This document shows positions 33,440 through 38,625 of a stretch of DNA of 64,000 nt, one piece after another. Position 1 is the first letter of the stretch; each line of letters opens with the position of its first letter. The DNA comes from Candidatus Hydrogenedentota bacterium (GTDB lineage: Bacteria; Hydrogenedentota; Hydrogenedentia; Hydrogenedentales; SLHB01). The stretch is taken from assembly GCA_045863335.1 (NCBI GenBank), contig BTVY01000021.1:43426-107425 (forward strand), read 5' to 3'. The notes below the pieces were generated by a model. The model had not been told where the DNA came from and made no database searches. It saw only the letters and a program-made list of their open reading frames with translations. The position numbers and the translations under genes were made by a program.

Positions 33440-34864
33440 ATGCGGAAAGATCTCAGTCCAAAAGATGTGGTCGACCTCATAAAGAAGGAAGAGGTCAAGT
33501 TCGTCGATATCCGGTTCATGGACTTCCCGGGTTTGATGCAACACTTCTCGATCCCGGCCCGTGAATTGAGCGAGGATACCTTCGAGGATGGCCTCGGGTT
33601 CGACGGATCGAGCATCCGGGGCTGGCAGGCCATCAACGAGAGCGACATGCTCGTACTGCCGGATCCGAAGACGGCGACCATCGACCCCTTCTCGGAAATC
33701 AAGACCCTCATTTTGTACTCGAATATCCTTGACCCGATTACGAAAGAGCGGTACAGCCGTTGCCCGCGTTGCATCGCGCAGAAGGCCGAAAACTACATGG
33801 TCTCGACCGGCCTTGCCGACACCGCATATATGGGGCCGGAAGCGGAGTTCTTCGTATTCGACAACGTTCAGTACGACATCAATTCGAATTCGGCGTTCCA
33901 CGTAGTCGACAGCGCGGAAGGCATCTGGAACAGCGGCCGTGACGAAGAGCCCAATCTGGGGTACAAGCTGCGCCACAAGGAAGGGTACTTCCCGGTTCCG
34001 CCGTCCGACTCCCTTCAGGACCTCCGCAACGAGATGGTCGACACCATGCTCAAGTGCGGGCTGAATGTGGAATGCCACCACCATGAAGTGGCGACCGCCG
34101 GACAGTGCGAGATCGATCTGCGGTTTGACAGCCTGACGCTCATGGCCGACATGATGACCATGTACAAGTACATCATCAAGAACACGGCCAAGGCGCACAA
34201 CAAGACCGTCACCTTCATGCCGAAGCCGCTCTACGCGGACAACGGCTCCGGGATGCACACCCATATCAGCCTTTGGAAGGGCGGCAAGCCGCTCTTCGCG
34301 GGAGACAAGTACGCCGGCCTGAGCCAGGAAGCCTTGTGGGGCATCGGCGGCCTGCTCAAACACGCGCCCGCGCTGGTCGCGATCACGAACCCCACGGTGA
34401 ATTCGTACAAGCGCCTCGTGCCGGGTTACGAAGCCCCGGTCAACCTGGCCTACTCGAGCCGGAATCGCAGCGCCTGCTGCCGAATCCCCATGTACTCGCC
34501 CAGCCCGAAGGCCAAACGCATCGAGTTCCGCGTGCCGGATCCGTCGTGCAACCCGTATCTCGCGTTCTCCGCGCTGCTCATGGCCGTCATCGACGGTATC
34601 CAGAACAAGATCGATCCGGGTTCCCCGATGGACAAGGACCTCTACGACCTGCCGGCCGAAGAGAAGGCCCTCATCCCGCAGACGCCGGGAAGCCTGGGCG
34701 AAGCGCTGGACGCCCTGGAAAAGGATCACGAGTTCCTGCTTCGGGGGGATGTGTTCACGAAGGACGTGATCGACACTTGGATCAGCTACAAGCGGGACAA
34801 AGAAGTGCTGCCCATGAGCCTGCGCCCGCACCCGTACGAGTTCTACTTGTACTACGACGTCTAA
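33440..34864 (+). CDS. glnA: Glutamine synthetase type I
   Basis: FDGSSI, HHHEVA, TFMPKP..DNGSGMH, GYEAP, adenylylation-site LYDLP. Confidence 0.97.
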
Positions 34865-34890
34865 GCCGTAACTACATCTGCAAAATCGAG

Positions 34891-34930
34891 CGGGGTGGCA
34901 ACGATACCGTTGCCACCCCGTCTGTTTTTT
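34891..34930 (+). terminator. Intrinsic terminator of glnB-glnA
   Basis: CGGGGTGGCAACG-ATAC-CGTTGCCACCCCG followed by a T-run. Confidence 0.85.
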
Positions 34931-35061
34931 GACTTGCCCCGCGGCAAGGGCCCCAGCCGTCTCGAAACCCGCCGGGCCCGCTGACGGTCCAATTGATTAG
35001 ACGCATGGCCGGAATCGCCAGTATCTGCCACGATCCGAGGCGCTGTACAAGGCATAGGAAC

Positions 35062-35096
35062 AAAAAAAGGGCCGAAACGCATACACGCTTCGGCCC
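35062..35096 (-). terminator. Intrinsic terminator after micropeptide A
   Basis: Minus strand GGGCCGAAGCG...TTTCGGCCC-TTTTTTT. Confidence 0.75.
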
Positions 35097-35156
35097 ACAC
35101 TCAACTCGCCCGGCCCCTCCGGACAGCAATCCGGGAAGGGCCGGTAGAATGCGCGA

Positions 35157-35219
35157 TTAGAGTACCTGGTACAGAACGACCAGAATGATCAGCCACCAGA
35201 TCCAAGAGAACCAGAACAT
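35157..35219 (-). CDS. Trp-rich hydrophobic micropeptide A (MFWFSWIWWLIILVVLYQVL, 20 aa)
   Basis: AAGGGAGGT RBS, ATG, paralogy with B and C, downstream terminator. Confidence 0.8.
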   Translation of the reverse strand: MFWFSWIWWLIILVVLYQVL

Positions 35220-35606
35220 GTTTTCGACCTCCCTTCTAGATGAGATGTGACGCCGCCCCTTCGGAGCGATAGTGTAAGACACCGGGGATACCCACATGTA
35301 TCCCTAAGCACCATACAACCTTGAATCAATTTCGTTTCACCGTCCGGTACCCTGGTATTCGGGTTTCGCACGCATCTCGTCAATCGCCGACCCACGCGTT
35401 TCGAAACCTGTCGGCCGTTTGCCGGGTCCAACTATCAGATTCGACGGAACCACCAGAATCCGGAAGCTGCAACAAAAGACAGTTTAAACATTCTCGCTGG
35501 CAATTTTAAAGGGGTCGAAGCATTGGCCTGCCCCGACCCCAGAATCTGCGCCGAATTGTGAGCCAAATGGGCCACTAGTGCCAGCGCAACGCGTATTCGG
35601 TTCTAG

Positions 35607-35666
35607 TTAGAGAACCTGATACAGAAGTACGATGATCAAAATCCACCACATCCACCACCAAAACAT
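35607..35666 (-). CDS. Trp-rich hydrophobic micropeptide B (MFWWWMWWILIIVLLYQVL, 19 aa)
   Basis: AAGGGAGGT RBS; same LYQVL C-terminus as A with synonymous codon differences. Confidence 0.8.
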   Translation of the reverse strand: MFWWWMWWILIIVLLYQVL

Positions 35667-35783
35667 AGTTCAAACCTCCCTTCATGTTAACGTTTACGCC
35701 ACTCCCTCACGGAGTGACGAAGATGCACAACACTTGATTTGATTGAACTGTATCTTGCCTTCTCTGAAGGCAAGAGGGCAGGG

Positions 35784-35882
35784 TTAAAGCACTTCGTACA
35801 GAATGACGATTGCGATGATCCACCAGATCCAGGTGAACGGGCTCAAGAGCCACCAGAACGCGGCTTTGGGCGTACCTTTCAT
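35784..35882 (-). CDS. Trp-rich hydrophobic micropeptide C (MKGTPKAAFWWLLSPFTWIWWIIAIVILYEVL, 32 aa)
   Basis: AAAGGAGGT RBS; WIWW..I.V.LYEVL shared with A and B. Confidence 0.8.
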   Translation of the reverse strand: MKGTPKAAFWWLLSPFTWIWWIIAIVILYEVL

Positions 35883-35986
35883 GAGTCAGACCTCCTTTCC
35901 TGCATCTCCAATCAGTCCGCTGAATCTCGGGTCCCCGGTCCTCCGCAGAACCTCACCCGAGATTGGTCTCGTGAAAACCAAGGCAG

Positions 35987-36015
35987 ATTGTATACGAGGT
36001 TTCGAGTATTTTCAA
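35987..36015 (-). promoter_or_regulatory. Sigma-70 promoter for micropeptide C
   Basis: TTGAAA-N17-TACAAT on the minus strand. Confidence 0.7.
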
Positions 36016-36213
36016 GCCCCTTCACACCTTTCGCAGCACTGCCTTGGGCCGGATCGAAACATCTTGCGGGTACGGGCACACTATAGCACAAACTGTGGGC
36101 ATCCTCAATAGAGAATATGTGGACAGCCGCGTCACGATAACGGTTTCGGGACCCGCTTCGCATCCCCGCGAAACCATGGAGGCGTGGACCCGGTCAAACT
36201 CCTAAAGCGAAAC

Positions 36214-36254
36214 AAAAAAAGTGTGGCGAATCCGCCGTGGATTCGCCACAAAAA
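36214..36254 (-). terminator. Intrinsic terminator after micropeptide D
   Basis: Minus strand TGTGGCGAATCC...GGATTCGCCACA-CTTTTTTT. Confidence 0.8.
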
Positions 36255-36281
36255 CTGCTAAGGAAAATGAGGTGTCCGGTA

Positions 36282-36368
36282 CTAGACCTGAAGGTTCCAA
36301 CCGGCCTCGAAGAACACCGCAAGGATGTACCATACGGCTACCCAAAACCACCAGAAAAGCAAAAACAT
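36282..36368 (-). CDS. Trp/Phe-rich micropeptide D (MFLLFWWFWVAVWYILAVFFEAGWNLQV, 28 aa)
   Basis: AAAGGAG RBS; paralogous to E; followed by a terminator. Confidence 0.78.
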   Translation of the reverse strand: MFLLFWWFWVAVWYILAVFFEAGWNLQV

Positions 36369-36546
36369 AGCCTTTTTCTCCTTTCGTTTCTACGAATGGT
36401 CGAACAGCACTAGACCCTAACTGTAGAGCTATCGGACCGGGAGAAACAACGAAGCATCGTCAACTGCTTCTCCTTCCGCTTCCGACTGGCGCCCACGCGA
36501 CTAGCATCGCACAGCGCCAAGCGTACCTGGGTCTAAGCTTCCAGCC

Positions 36547-36627
36547 TTAGAACGGGTAAAGCCCAGCGTAGAAGACGTTCCACACCAACCACCAGAAAAG
36601 CCAGAATCCCCACAGCAAAAGAAACAT
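36547..36627 (-). CDS. Trp/Phe-rich micropeptide E (MFLLLWGFWLFWWLVWNVFYAGLYPF, 26 aa)
   Basis: AAAGGAGGT RBS; MFLL..W..W...F.AG shared with D. Confidence 0.8.
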   Translation of the reverse strand: MFLLLWGFWLFWWLVWNVFYAGLYPF

Positions 36628-36684
36628 ACCTAGACCTCCTTTCATGTTGATCGTTCTTCGTTGCCCCCCATGGAGCGTGGCGAC

Positions 36685-36713
36685 AGTATAGCATAAGAGA
36701 TCCTGAGAAACAA
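36685..36713 (-). promoter_or_regulatory. Sigma-70 promoter for micropeptide E
   Basis: TTGTTT-N17-TATACT with extended -10 TG. Confidence 0.7.
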
Positions 36714-36846
36714 CGAGTTGTGGGAGAAAATCTCTCGTACCCATGGTGCTGTGCCCCAGGGCCATACGTTCACAGCAAATTCGAAATCCGAAGCACGAAA
36801 TCCGAAGCTAATTCCAAGGATCGGAACCTGAATGGATGCCCCCTGT

Positions 36847-36930
36847 GGCTTGGGCGTCCTCGCCCAAGAGGTCTGCCGGGGTAGCCCGCAGGTTACATCC
36901 CCAGGAGCTTGTGCGAGGACGCCCAAGCCA
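36847..36930. repeat. REP-like inverted repeat pair
   Basis: TGGCTTGGGCGTCCTCGCCCAAG ... CTTGTGCGAGGACGCCCAAGCCA. Confidence 0.7.
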
Positions 36931-37023
36931 TGGCTACTGTCTCGAAATGGGACTGGTCTCCGGCATGGTTTTTAGGGCATTATCGGCGTTGATGAGCCAA
37001 TCGCGGCCACGGAGAATCTCACG

Positions 37024-38538
37024 GTGAACGCCAATCCGCCCAATATCCTCTTCATTATGACCGACCAGCAACGCGCGGACGCGTTGCAAGCAGCGGGGAA
37101 TCCCCTCATCTTCACCCCCAATATGGACCGGTTGGCCGCGCGGGGCGTCCGGTTTACGCGCGCGTATTCCACCTGCCCGGTCTGCGTTCCGGCCCGGTAC
37201 ACCATCCGGACCGGGCGGGAACCCCACACCACGGGGGTCTATTCCAACGCGGCGCCGGACCCGGTCGAAGGGCAGCCGGCCGCCATGGAGGACCGCTGCG
37301 GACCCTACCTGGCGCGAACGATGACCGGCCTCGGCTACCGGACCTTCGGGATTGGGAAGTTCCACTCCCAGCCCCGCGACGAAGACCTGGGATACGAGGT
37401 CCATCTCCACAGCGAAGAACTGTTCGGATCGCCGGAGGACCGGAAGAAGGACGCCTATTGCCGGTTCATCGCGGGCGAGCATCCCGCGTTCTCCTATATC
37501 GAGGATTATATGGGCGAGCGAACGGAAATGTACTACATGCCCCAACAGAGCCCCCTTCCGCCGGAGCTGACGGTAGAATCGTGGGCGGCCGACCGCGCCG
37601 TGGAACAAATACAGTCCTCGGATTCGCGTCCGTACTTTGGCTTTGTATCCTTCATCGGGCCTCACCCGCCGCTGGCGCCGCCCATCCCTTTCAACCGGAT
37701 GTACGATCCCGACGAGATGCCTAACCCCATCCGGGGTGACATTGCAGTCGATCACATGGACGAACAGATCCCCTGGATGAACCACGCCGTGTGGGCGGAG
37801 GACATCAACGATGCCCACGCGCGCGTGCTTCGGGCGCGATACTATGGCGAGATCTCCTATATCGACCAGTGCCTGGGCCGCATCCTGGACGCGGTAGACG
37901 CCCGCGACGACGCTGCCAACACGCTGATCTGCTTCTACTCCGACCACGGCGACCACCTCGGCGACCACCATGGCTGGCAGAAGGAGAGCTATTTCGACGT
38001 ATCCTGCCGCGTGCCGTTCCTGGTGAGTTGGCTGGACCGGCTCGACGCCGGAGTCGTGAGCGACAATCTGGTATGCCTGACCGACCTCTTCGGCATCGCC
38101 ACCACCGCCGCCGGCGCGCCGGACCTGCGAGACGGCTCGGACATTCTGGGCGCACTATGGGGCACGGCAACGCCGCGCGAGCGGGTCATCGGCCTCTACG
38201 GCACACCGGGCACGCCCCGATTCAAAGTCATGGTCCGCGAAGGCGACTGGAAATACGTCTACTTCGCGAACGGCGGTACGGAACAACTCTTCAACCTAAC
38301 CGAGGATCCCCACGAGCTGCGGCAACGCGCGCAGGACAAGCCAGACGTCGTCGCACGACTCCGCGCAACCGCCGTGGAGGCCGTAAACGTGCCCAACGCG
38401 AACCGCGCCCTCGACGCCGGCGGCCTTGTCGCCTTCCCCTTCGAAGCCCGCCCCTTCCGCCGTATCGTACAGATGGACCGGTCCCGCGACATAACCGGCT
38501 TTCCGGAGAACCCGGGGGACCTGTTTGCCGGAACCTAG
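37024..38538 (+). CDS. Sulfatase (choline-sulfatase-like, cytoplasmic)
   Basis: TDQQRAD, CVPAR, GKFH, PHPP, SDHGD. Confidence 0.92.
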   Translation: MNANPPNILFIMTDQQRADALQAAGNPLIFTPNMDRLAARGVRFTRAYSTCPVCVPARYTIRTGREPHTTGVYSNAAPDPVEGQPAAMEDRCGPYLARTMTGLGYRTFGIGKFHSQPRDEDLGYEVHLHSEELFGSPEDRKKDAYCRFIAGEHPAFSYIEDYMGERTEMYYMPQQSPLPPELTVESWAADRAVEQIQSSDSRPYFGFVSFIGPHPPLAPPIPFNRMYDPDEMPNPIRGDIAVDHMDEQIPWMNHAVWAEDINDAHARVLRARYYGEISYIDQCLGRILDAVDARDDAANTLICFYSDHGDHLGDHHGWQKESYFDVSCRVPFLVSWLDRLDAGVVSDNLVCLTDLFGIATTAAGAPDLRDGSDILGALWGTATPRERVIGLYGTPGTPRFKVMVREGDWKYVYFANGGTEQLFNLTEDPHELRQRAQDKPDVVARLRATAVEAVNVPNANRALDAGGLVAFPFEARPFRRIVQMDRSRDITGFPENPGDLFAGT

Positions 38539-38592
38539 TGTCCTGAGCCCTAAGTTCCTTCTCAAGAATCTTGTGTGACGTGTTGGTCAAAG

Positions 38593-38625
38593 TCCCCCTT
38601 TGAAGGGGGATTTAGGGGGATGTTC
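38593..38625. repeat. Single copy of the CCCCCTT...AAGGGGG repeat
   Basis: TCCCCCTTTGAAGGGGGATTTAGGGGGATGTTC. Confidence 0.7.

Follow-up and report, generated by a model that had tools for sequence, protein, structure and literature searches.

The window analyzed here, a 64,000-nucleotide stretch of DNA from an uncultured Candidatus Hydrogenedentota bacterium of wastewater, carries five unannotated minus-strand micro-ORFs, A to E (Table 1), that are almost certainly real, expressed micro-protein genes. The encoded peptides comprise 19 to 32 amino acids, more than 70% of them hydrophobic, with Y-[QE]-V-L, Y-P-F, or G-W-N-x-x-x at the C-terminus. They belong to a set that, judged by profile searches, is confined to five genera within one family of the phylum. 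We propose, with a probability of about 0.4 to 0.45, that the peptides may be abundant single-pass membrane accessory micro-subunits or modulators acting as a set, and we think that they are not self-contained toxin cassettes.

Table 1. Genes and predicted expression signals of the array in the window (gene coordinates include the stop codon)
Feature	Position	Strand	Description
Gene A	35157-35219	minus	20 aa, type 1
Gene B	35607-35666	minus	19 aa, type 1; start at 35666 (corrects an earlier reading)
Gene C	35784-35882	minus	32 aa, type 1 with basic N-terminal extension M-K-G-x-P-K
Gene D	36282-36368	minus	28 aa, Trp-rich single helix; C-terminal [EQ]-[AG]-G-W-N motif
Gene E	36547-36627	minus	26 aa, Trp-rich single helix; invariant C-terminal Y-P-F
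E-D unit promoter	36685..36713	minus	TTGTTT, 17 nt, TGcTATACT (extended -10)
E-D spacer hairpin	36432..36485	minus	UCGGAAGCGGAAGGAGAA ... UUUCUCCCGGUCCGA; SD-like GGAGAA buried against UUUCUCC
E-D unit intrinsic terminator	36212..36250	minus	12-bp stem and T-run
Promoter P1, type-1 unit	36080..36108	minus	TTGAGG, 17 nt, TGcTATAGT; leader of ~190 nt
Promoter-like site P2	35987..36015	minus	TTGAAA, 17 nt, TACAAT; 10/12 matches
C-B-A unit intrinsic terminator	35062..35096	minus	Matching hairpin after A in G004

Identification of the micro-genes

The initial annotation had described five co-oriented ORFs with near-consensus ribosome-binding sites in this region. Both statements hold: the peptides are exactly as quoted there, and each of the ORFs starts with ATG and is preceded at a distance of 6 to 9 nt by a Shine-Dalgarno (SD) sequence reading AGGAG, GGAGG, or GGGAGG. 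A fixed filter (ATG start, SD-like motif, 12 to 60 amino acids, at least four Trp residues and 12% Trp, more than 70% hydrophobic residues) retrieved six ORFs from the 6.75-Mb genome, as compared with one from the reversed genome and 1, 0, and 1 from three shuffled genomes. All members of the array of five were thereby recovered, and the sixth ORF is a paralog, F, which lies elsewhere in the genome (contig C31). The Trp content amounts to 16 to 26% in A to E and 13% in F, against 1.38% for long ORFs of the same genome. By inspection, each peptide contains zero to three charged residues, leaving the set almost uncharged and wholly hydrophobic.

Sequence conservation of the peptides

The host genome (G000) and a second genome of the same genus (G004) served as the reference pair for dN/dS, with pS ranging from 0.24 (A) to 0.59 across the genes. 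Low ratios were obtained for E (0.07; Sd 9, Nd 5), D (0.03; Sd 8, Nd 2), C (0.14), A (0.07), and F (0.05). Gene B is the most variable member, its pairwise dN/dS of 0.28 to 1.16 being calculated over very few sites; G003, G005, and G004 retain its frame and SD. Gene A differs from its counterpart in G004 by one amino-acid change and three synonymous changes and from those in G001 and G002 by six synonymous changes and one replacement. Eleven orthologs from five genera are available for E, in which W13, W16, Y20, Y24, P25, and F26 are invariant, next to eight orthologs of D and six orthologs or paralogs of C (alignment A4). According to these comparisons, purifying selection covers the whole peptides and not just the Trp residues or the last codons. 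The earlier claim that codons differ synonymously while the peptide is conserved, which had been taken to point to selection at the protein level, is thus confirmed between species (dN/dS of 0.03 to 0.14 within the genus, B being noisier), and homologs that keep frame and ribosome-binding site, under purifying selection, were found across genera.

Families, distribution, and gene order

The six genes fall into four families, namely type 1 (A, B, and C), D, E, and F. Two paralog groups had been proposed initially; the grouping of A, B, and C stands, but D and E are separate, single-copy orthologous families. D, E, and F share the N-terminal pattern M-F-L-L-x-W-x-x-W and carry Trp at positions i, i+3, and i+7 on one face of the helix. 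The C-terminal motifs are specific for each family: L-Y-[QE]-V-L (type 1), Y-A-x-x-Y-P-F (E), [EQ]-x-G-W-N (D), and V-G-x-G-x-x-L-P-[DE]-L (F). Profile comparisons among the four families gave probabilities of 53 to 90%, which are weak and driven by composition and do not establish that D, E, and F share an ancestor.

Of 135 genomes of the phylum, 16 contain exactly one match to the E profile each and belong without exception to one family (the host genome and 5/5 others of genus g1, 5/5 of g11, 3/3 of g8, 1/1 of g17, and 1/1 of g42), whereas none of the 82 genomes of other families has a match. In a tree of the response regulator that neighbors the set in some genomes, all 13 E-bearing genomes are located on one side of one branch (support 83/63). 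Four genera preserve the order E-D-type 1, and the fifth has E alone; the complete set is therefore not obligatory. Wherever E and D both occur, they are single-copy and adjacent and are followed by one to four copies of type 1; over all genomes, the type-1 copy number varies from 0 to 4. A type-1 profile search found 9 of 133 genomes, which is an underestimate because the known C-like gene of G021 was missed.

In the host genome, a conserved gene for an HTH-receiver response regulator lies a short distance upstream of F. G117 has the contiguous series regulator-F-E-D-type 1-type 1, which ends against a convergent glnA, while in G021 the series reads regulator-F-E-D-C and the array lies away from glnA. 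PII, glnA, and sulfatase genes are neighbors of the array in two genera; elsewhere it is flanked by genes for a response regulator plus an FMN-binding protein, or for a PEP-CTERM protein plus a glycosyltransferase-like protein. Four genomes of three other genera likewise have the regulator and glnA as convergent neighbors but no peptide genes, and the adjacency of the array to its annotated neighbors therefore looks historical. A link to nitrogen regulation through PII and glnA was rejected for this reason and in view of the position of the array in G021. Two further searches produced chance matches only: a scan of viral contigs for a phage or mobile origin (one match, with in-frame stops) and a scan of metagenome contigs for the type-1 pattern (two matches).

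Transcription units and RNA-library cover

Conserved promoters and terminators indicate two putative transcription units in the window, E-D and C-B-A. The E-D promoter, a site that a simple promoter scanner did not list, is identical in G004, and a TTGnnn-17-TGnTAnAnT site is found 65 to 72 nt before the E start in six of seven genomes. No extended -10 occurs within 260 nt upstream of D in any of the seven (0/7), which fits co-transcription with E. The terminator of this unit retains its stem in G004 with a changed sequence. P1 is likewise conserved in G004, and an extended -10 precedes the first type-1 gene by 195 to 216 nt in 5/7 genomes; P2 was found in G004 and is not clearly kept in other genera. 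The 5' region upstream of A is conserved and contains a -10-like hexamer, TACACT (35271-35276, read by eye), possibly reflecting an extra internal promoter before A.

For the hairpin of the E-D spacer, 18 pairs are predicted, with hardly any covariation; it is present in six of six genomes from three genera and absent from G117 and from the genus with E alone; the motifs of its left and right arms each occur once in the host genome. Its inner stem was flagged as weakly terminator-like by the scanner. A riboswitch-like element was sought in the long leader of the type-1 unit, but leaders from six genomes could not be aligned and yielded no consensus structure, and 5' leaders fold no better than shuffled sequence (z of -1.76 to +0.74). 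Rfam at a relaxed threshold returned nothing meaningful, as the microRNA and sRNA models that matched scored well short of gathering. The best sub-threshold match, at 36842-36933, is a dispersed hairpin repeat outside the array.

The region is present in RNA libraries of environmental communities. These data are unstranded assembled contigs that do not show strand, ends, or level, and in which DNA carry-over is possible. Contigs from runs X13, X18, and X20, which represent three metatranscriptome studies, cover 34973-36062 and 36189-36767. One 950-nt contig of X13 (34973-35928) bridges C, B, and A, and a contig of X20 (36213-36667) bridges D and E, with adapter letters just outside 36213, at the end of the T-run. 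In X18, a contig ends with adapter letters at 36062, which is compatible with a start from P1 but no proof of it. The gap at 36010-36183 in X13 and X20 and the missing cover of the sulfatase gene (37054-38600) in X13, X18, and X20 are weak hints only, since absence cannot be read from contigs. In run X3, every bin is covered, the sulfatase gene among them, and the D terminator is bridged; this run may contain DNA or read-through and was left out of the unit evidence. The initial annotation had regarded the genes as individually expressed; own promoters are found for part of them, but the positions of promoters and terminators and the gene-bridging contigs fit the units E-D and C-B-A.

Database and literature searches

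Pfam and NCBIfam hmmscan searches with A, C, D, and E gave only noise at E>2, F had no Pfam match at E<=0.01, and A, C, D, E, and F had no match in PADLOC; B, with 19 amino acids, is below the minimum length and was left out of the family scans. Searching the PDB with profiles built from the alignments of all four families returned 0 matches at E<=10, PHROGs gave no match apart from one row at E 6.9, and an Atlas feature search gave no usable match. For gene C, a profile search found five matches among 1.84 billion representative proteins, with one source name, "hypothetical protein". The peptides had initially not been recognized as any family of type I toxins or small membrane regulators, and this agrees with the searches of Pfam, NCBIfam, PADLOC, PHROGs, the PDB, and Rfam, none of which revealed a described small-protein family. 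Neither a description of such peptides nor a physiological study of the host phylum was found among the literature listings searched.

Proposed role at the membrane

Judged from composition, each peptide would insert into the cytoplasmic membrane as one helix because it comprises some 20 residues without charge and has its Trp residues clustered toward the N-terminus. For C, the basic N-terminus points to an orientation with the N-terminus inside and the C-terminus outside. The family-specific C-terminal motifs and the Trp face of D, E, and F are the reason to propose that the peptides act via specific helix-helix contacts, which they may form among themselves, with a larger membrane protein whose gene lies elsewhere, or both. 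Trp is the costliest amino acid, and its extreme content in peptides that are seemingly made in quantity argues for a selected aromatic role inside or at the edge of the membrane.

KdpF, CydX, AcrZ, MgtS, and sarcolipin are single-helix proteins of about 20 to 37 amino acids that act by helix-helix contact in the membrane, and the peptides of the array resemble them in size, single helix, and short conserved terminal motifs. In contrast to these proteins, to which no homology was found, the array consists of five or six genes in units of their own with no partner nearby. Known accessory micro-subunits are usually encoded in the operon of their partner, which is not the case for the array peptides. 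No membrane complex adjoins the array among the annotated neighbors, PII, glnA, the sulfatases, and the response regulator being soluble or unrelated to membrane complexes; the lack of a partner protein speaks against an accessory-subunit role, as does the genus that has E alone. As stated in a 2025 preprint, the 19-aa IbsA inhibits the F1Fo ATP synthase, which suggests that tiny peptides can have a specific membrane target.

Alternative explanations

It is doubtful, although conceivable, that the set represents a single invention, in which F, E, D, and type 1 would have arisen once in one Hydrogenedentota lineage, in the spacer between the convergent regulator and glnA genes, and would co-assemble into a hetero-oligomeric, aromatic-lined structure. 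The peptides would then be made in bulk and form a minimal channel or a membrane-organizing scaffold from nothing but peptides of 20 to 30 residues. A complex prediction for F+E+D+C reached a score of 0.09 against a mark of 0.32, with two chains of fewer than 30 residues being outside the calibration, and speaks neither for nor against binding. WALP peptides are designed aliphatic helices of about 20 residues that just span the bilayer with interfacial Trp residues at their flanks. The array peptides are similar as helices of about 20 residues with Trp that would span the bilayer once, but they are natural, their Trp clusters are asymmetric, and their C-terminal motifs are family specific and under selection. 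If true, a single invention would amount to a ribosomally made analog of gramicidin- or WALP-like peptides to which nothing described so far is equivalent.

We also consider it unlikely that the peptides are type I toxin-like and depolarize or permeabilize the membrane, with their translation held down by an undiscovered RNA antitoxin. Some toxin mRNAs exhibit long-range 5'-3' pairing. An inverted repeat between the E leader (36646-36663) and the E-D spacer (36447-36464), 78% complementary, recalls such pairing. In the predicted minimum-energy fold, moreover, a UUCUCC located upstream is able to pair with the SD of D. The complement, however, is not kept in G021 (judged by eye), and the 5' leaders are not unusually structured. 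The type I heuristics given in the text of Fozo et al. 2010 (PMC2887945) are a size below 70 aa, one hydrophobic helix, a short polar or aromatic C-terminus, tandem positions in an intergenic region, and own promoters, and the array agrees with them in size, single hydrophobic helix, polar or aromatic C-terminus, tandem copies, and own promoters. The tandem ibs/sib, ldr/rdl, and zorO/orzO loci of enterobacteria similarly contain several copies of unannotated genes for hydrophobic single-helix peptides of 18 to 35 aa with own promoters in one intergenic region. The type I analogy that had been drawn for the array is thus upheld for the protein-level heuristics only.

At the nucleotide level, the array is different. 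According to the same source, sequence similarity in loci of the ibs/sib, ldr/rdl, and zor/orz type continues past the coding sequence (PMC2887945). The direct repeats among A, B, and C, by contrast, comprise 49 to 66 nt (the ORF plus at most ~10 nt behind its stop codon) and 15 to 27 nt of the SD region, after which the spacers differ, and the DNA just after the stop codons of E, C, and B shows no conservation between species. The spacers had been called largely dissimilar; this applies to the paralog repeats, which reach little past the ORFs and SD regions, but not between species, where conservation includes promoters, 5' leaders, and terminators. Neither antisense promoters nor antisense terminators recur among G000, G004, and G021: the plus strand of the G000 array has no promoter-like site, the antisense strand of G004 has one that does not recur, and G021 has none. 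An antisense RNA, however, would not be evident from the unstranded RNA-library contigs. The peptides match no described toxin family (such as Ibs, Ldr, Hok, TisB, ShoB, Fst, or TxpA) in Pfam, NCBIfam, and PADLOC (A, C, D, and E; F against Pfam and PADLOC), their Trp content of 13 to 26% sets them apart from the ibs/sib-type loci, and four different families whose order is fixed and of which only type 1 is multicopy do not look like duplicated toxin-antitoxin cassettes.

Quite unlikely is an exported or released set of hydrophobic peptides, similar to leaderless bacteriocins or phenol-soluble modulins or acting as a hydrophobic signal, with a transporter encoded elsewhere. Like the psm-alpha operon of Staphylococcus aureus, aureocin A70, and garvicin KS, the array encodes peptides of 20 to 35 aa head to tail with no signal or leader sequence, own strong SD sequences, strong promoters, and presumably high expression, and the peptides are rich in aromatic residues. 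The variation of the type-1 copy number between genomes would also be in line with fast-evolving competition factors. The psm-alpha peptides and leaderless bacteriocins are amphipathic, often cationic, and secreted by dedicated transporters. The array peptides, with their few charges, have no amphipathic or cationic character and should be insoluble outside the membrane, and there is no ABC transporter or immunity gene among the annotated neighbors. Purifying selection and a fixed order over five genera fit a housekeeping function better than an arms race.

Very unlikely are leader or arrest peptides that would sense the supply of Trp-tRNA or the capacity for membrane insertion and thereby control D, the later type-1 genes, or antisense read-through into glnA. 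The Trp density, the Y-P-F end of E followed by TAA in six E-D spacers, and the conserved hairpin that hides an SD-like sequence would suit such a role, as would the convergence of the array on glnA together with one RNA-library contig that runs ~90 nt beyond the A terminator. Selection acts on whole peptides, however, and no biosynthetic or membrane-insertase gene follows downstream; when tested for a Trp attenuator of the trpL/TnaC type, the units were found to be followed by terminators and not by trp or tna genes. In one genus, E stands alone before a terminator, and the hairpin is missing there and in G117. Moreover, the type-1 leader has no conserved sequence or structure across genera, and Rfam detected no attenuator or T-box.

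Trp is a frequent site of cross-links and prenylation in RiPPs. It is nevertheless highly improbable that the peptides are RiPP precursors whose modification and export depend on enzymes from other loci of the genome: they are short and have conserved C-terminal motifs, but they lack a leader-core organization, with members of 17 to 32 aa starting at the conserved core and the shortest (17 to 20 aa) being entirely hydrophobic. No maturase, protease, or transporter was present among the annotated neighbors in any context seen, in agreement with the initial observation that modifying enzymes are not adjacent. Finally, a chance occurrence of the ORFs in a non-coding region has only their small size, most of them being too short for standard gene callers, in its favor and is virtually untenable, being refuted by the synonymous excess reflected in dN/dS, the six ORFs as opposed to 0 or 1 in the controls, and the conservation of frames and SD sequences over five genera.

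Implications

Genes of 19 to 32 codons reach, or fall short of, the minimum length for reliable annotation, and the present case is unusually clean, with six genes in four families, a fixed order over five genera, clear purifying selection, promoters, terminators, and presence in RNA libraries. The locus looks like a tractable example of how micro-genes can arise and multiply in an intergenic spacer within a single lineage. Should the peptides be toxins, they would constitute new type I families outside the Proteobacteria and Firmicutes, the only groups from which, as far as its text states, the candidates of Fozo et al. 2010 (PMC2887945) were drawn. Should they self-assemble, they would represent a natural minimal membrane structure. 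If they are accessory subunits, as we propose, they would point to an undescribed membrane machine in this family of Candidatus Hydrogenedentota.

Identification of the tryptophan-rich micro-ORFs

A minus-strand reading of 34700-37100, together with a list of ORFs of at least 20 codons, returns the five micro-ORFs A to E exactly as quoted in the initial annotation. AGGAG, GGAGG, or GGGAGG precedes the ATG of every one of them. In the 6.75-Mb, 105-contig assembly, a genome-wide scan for short ORFs with at least four Trp and 12% Trp gave 562 candidates, of which 32 combine an ATG with a Shine-Dalgarno (SD)-like motif. Only six of these 32 are hydrophobic, namely A to E and a sixth member on another contig, F. 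With an explicit hydrophobicity filter, six ORFs were counted in the real genome, one in the reversed genome, and one, none, and one in three shuffled genomes. The Trp content amounts to 16-26% in A to E and 13% in F, compared with 1.38% in the long ORFs of the same genome. The array of Trp-rich micro-ORFs is real and far beyond chance.

Positions of the micro-ORFs and their putative expression signals (window coordinates unless a contig is named)
Feature	Position	Strand	Basis or remark
Gene A	35157-35219	minus	ATG start
Gene B	35607-35666	minus	ATG start
Gene C	35784-35882	minus	ATG start
Gene D	36282-36368	minus	ATG start
Gene E	36547-36627	minus	ATG start
Gene F (31 aa)	contig C31, locus L037, 9286-9378	minus	genome-wide scan
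Intrinsic terminator after D	36250-36222	minus	simple scan
Intrinsic terminator after A	35096-35069	minus	simple scan
Promoter-like site P1, before C	36108-36080	minus	simple scan
Promoter-like site P2, before C	36015-35987	minus	simple scan
Promoter of E, TTGTTT-17-TGcTATACT	36713-36685	minus	by eye; identical in G004

The spacer between B and A holds an 18-codon ORF (35435-35491) with a G-F-W-W-F stretch and DNA resembling the type-1 ORFs (the family of A, B, and C). It has no good SD site, its segment is missing in the same-genus genome G004, and it probably represents a further type-1 copy that has decayed. Contigs of three same-genus assemblies break inside the array (G005, loci L003/L009; G001, L038/L040; G002, L039/L041), either in the B-A spacer or immediately past E, which suggests that repeats or strain variation hamper assembly there.

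Peptide families and their conservation

The five peptides of the array had been assigned to two paralogue groups, a division that needs correction; with F included, four families can be distinguished. Type 1 is characterized by a W-x-W-W core, seven aliphatic residues, and a C-terminal [YL]-[QE]-V-L, to which C-type members add a basic N-terminal M-K-G-x-P-K. The E family has the invariant residues W13, W16, Y20, Y24, P25, and F26, the D family carries W-Y-x-L-x-V-F ... [EQ]-x-G-W-N, and the F family W-x-x-V-G-x-G-x-x-L-P-[DE]-L. An N-terminal M-F-L-L-x-W-x-x-W-x-x-x-W is common to D, E, and F; profile-profile comparison of the four families gives weak scores (53-90% probability), which reflect composition.

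Of 41 related genomes searched at the DNA level, eight matched: the organism's own, all five others of its genus, and two from other genera of the family. The ordered array E-D-C-B-A is kept in G003, G005, and G004 with frames, starts, and SD sites intact, and related arrays occur in G015, G110, G111, and G021. Comparison of the own genome with G004 by Nei-Gojobori counting gave low dN/dS values for E (Sd 9, Nd 5, dN/dS 0.07), D (Sd 8, Nd 2, 0.03), C (Sd 11.5, Nd 10.5, 0.14), A (Sd 3, Nd 1, 0.07), and F (Sd 10.5, Nd 3.5, 0.05). The exception is B, whose roughly 10 synonymous sites yield a noisy dN/dS of 0.28-1.16. In the whole-region alignment of the same two genomes, the ORFs, promoter/leader blocks, and terminators are conserved, and the remaining spacer sequence has diverged, with indels.

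Transcription units

The placement of TTGnnn-17-TGnTAnAnT sites was compared across seven genomes. Such a site lies 67-92 nt before F in six of the seven, 65-72 nt before E in six, and 195-216 nt before the first type-1 gene in five; it precedes D in none of the seven and never stands before later type-1 genes. In G004 the sequence of the D terminator has changed, but its stem is kept. As these promoter sites and the D terminator are kept, the conserved units are F alone, E-D, and the type-1 group, so that the proposal of individually expressed genes needs correction for E-D and the type-1 genes. Upstream of A, a conserved block containing a TACACT hexamer, recognized by eye, may be an added internal promoter. 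On its contig, F has its own TTGACA-17-TGcTAGACT promoter and a terminator.

Part of the stretch is found in 20 of the 24 public runs listed, from bioreactor, sludge, and wastewater habitats, and RNA libraries account for six of the 20. Four RNA runs, each available as assembled contigs, were compared. In X13, one 950-nt contig (34973-35928) spans C, B, and A, and further contigs cover 36189-36488 and 36459-36613. X20 has a contig spanning D and E (36213-36667), and adapter letters adjoin it on the outer side of 36213, where the terminator's T-run ends. X18 covers 35086-35453, 35652-36062, and 36261-36767, and adapter letters follow immediately beyond 36062. Over the sulfatase gene (37054-38600), X13, X18, and X20 have no contigs; run X3 was left out of the evidence, as it covers everything including this gene. 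The contigs carry no strand information and do not reveal transcript ends or levels, so they support, rather than prove, transcription of the array in two units.

Several other elements were observed in the spacers. A 54-nt hairpin between E and D (36432-36485) is almost invariant in sequence across three genera and pairs an SD-like GGAGAA with UUUCUCC, each arm motif being found once in the genome. G117, a relative from the same family, lacks this hairpin, as do the genomes in which E stands alone. The hairpin may serve as a processing site, as a leaky attenuator, or as a switch for the translation of D. The leader between P1 and P2 holds a 16-codon ORF without an SD site (36012-36062), whose length, frame, and C-terminal C-E-x-C-E-G-A are kept in G004 (by eye). 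An X18 contig ends at its first base, and its conservation may simply reflect the overlapping -35 region of P2. The interval separating the E promoter from the divergent sulfatase gene contains a long hairpin (36776-36935); this is one copy of a repeat dispersed through the genome, dozens of partial copies being spread over many contigs. The hairpin reaches a depth of 118 in X3, where several contigs diverge at 36776, and a spurious microRNA match from Rfam falls on it.

Gene order and taxonomic distribution

E and D are single-copy and always adjacent, followed by one to four type-1 copies; in the genus g8, E stands alone. F sits 135-208 nt downstream of the gene for a 192-aa HTH_17/MerR-plus-receiver response regulator. 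It was found in nine of 30 first regulator loci, in one of 39 further loci, and in G021, the F-positive loci comprising all genomes examined of the own genus g1 and of g11, g17, and g42. F is absent from the other 59 regulator loci examined, which come from both g8 genomes, additional genera of the family, and other families. The regulator is not dedicated to the peptides, since 118 of the order's 133 genomes carry it; in nearly all of these 118 it is 55-74% identical. A second receiver-domain gene precedes it. In the own genome, F and these regulator genes lie on contig C31 at locus L037, 9286-10142 and 10506-11432.

In G117, the order regulator-F-E-D-type 1-type 1 is contiguous and is followed by an ankyrin-repeat gene and a convergent glnA, and in G021 the series reads regulator-F-E-D-C. 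In g1 and g11 the series falls into two separately located parts, regulator-F and sulfatase/E-D-type 1/glnA. Three other genera include four genomes in which the regulator gene and glnA adjoin in convergent orientation, without peptide genes in the spacer. The simplest history is that the peptide set arose in the regulator-glnA spacer and was later rearranged; the PII-glnA neighbourhood is therefore uninformative on function.

When one genome per prokaryotic species was scanned with a degenerate pattern for the E C-terminus, 30 stretches were returned. An E-type micro-ORF is present in 13, of which 11 belong to records titled Candidatus Hydrogenedentota, Hydrogenedentales, or Hydrogenedentes and two to records titled "uncultured bacterium" and "uncultured Nitrospiraceae"; the other 17 are chance matches without such an ORF. 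The E-family profile matched 16 of 135 genomes of the phylum, once each and all within one family of 53 genomes (g1 5/5 plus the own genome, g11 5/5, g8 3/3, g17 1/1, g42 1/1), and 0/82 genomes of other families. The type-1 profile matched nine of 133 genomes of the order, a count that underestimates its spread because a known member in G021 was missed. The response-regulator tree has one modestly supported branch (83/63) that places all 13 E-bearing genomes together on the same side, a result compatible with a single origin of the set.

Among 1.84 billion representative proteins, the C-type profile found five matches, four peptides of 29-31 aa and one over-extended call. Cluster look-ups show that the peptides are occasionally called by annotation pipelines, under the sole name "hypothetical protein". 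Matches from viral and metagenome pattern scans were chance only.

Proposed role and novelty

The peptides are short, nearly uncharged, and Trp-rich, are kept as a set, and each has a conserved C-terminal motif. Their promoters and SD sites are recognizable as strong, from which the peptides would be made. Because of these combined properties, we infer that each peptide inserts as a single-pass membrane helix; for C, the basic N-terminus points to an N-in orientation. The helices would act by specific helix-helix contacts, either with one another or with a larger membrane protein, much like small accessory subunits.

The strongest competing reading is a type I toxin array, for which the peptides would be candidates by the protein-level heuristics outlined in Fozo et al. 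2010. Against it, the repeat unit barely exceeds the ORF and SD region, conservation is lacking past the stop codons, the leaders show no unusual structure, and no recurrent antisense promoter or terminator was found in three genomes. Four distinct single-copy families in a fixed order are, moreover, unlike duplicated cassettes. Exported peptides, leader peptides, and RiPP precursors are less likely.

The view that these peptides form an undescribed group is supported. No family was found for A, C, D, and E in Pfam and NCBIfam or for F in Pfam, and PADLOC and PHROGs gave no match. PDB profile searches with all four family alignments returned zero matches at E<=10, the Atlas search gave no usable match, Rfam gave only noise, and text searches found no description among the papers they returned. 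As predicted membrane proteins, the peptides are narrowly distributed and new among the small membrane proteins of bacteria, and what is unusual about them is their Trp content and their conservation as a multi-family set.
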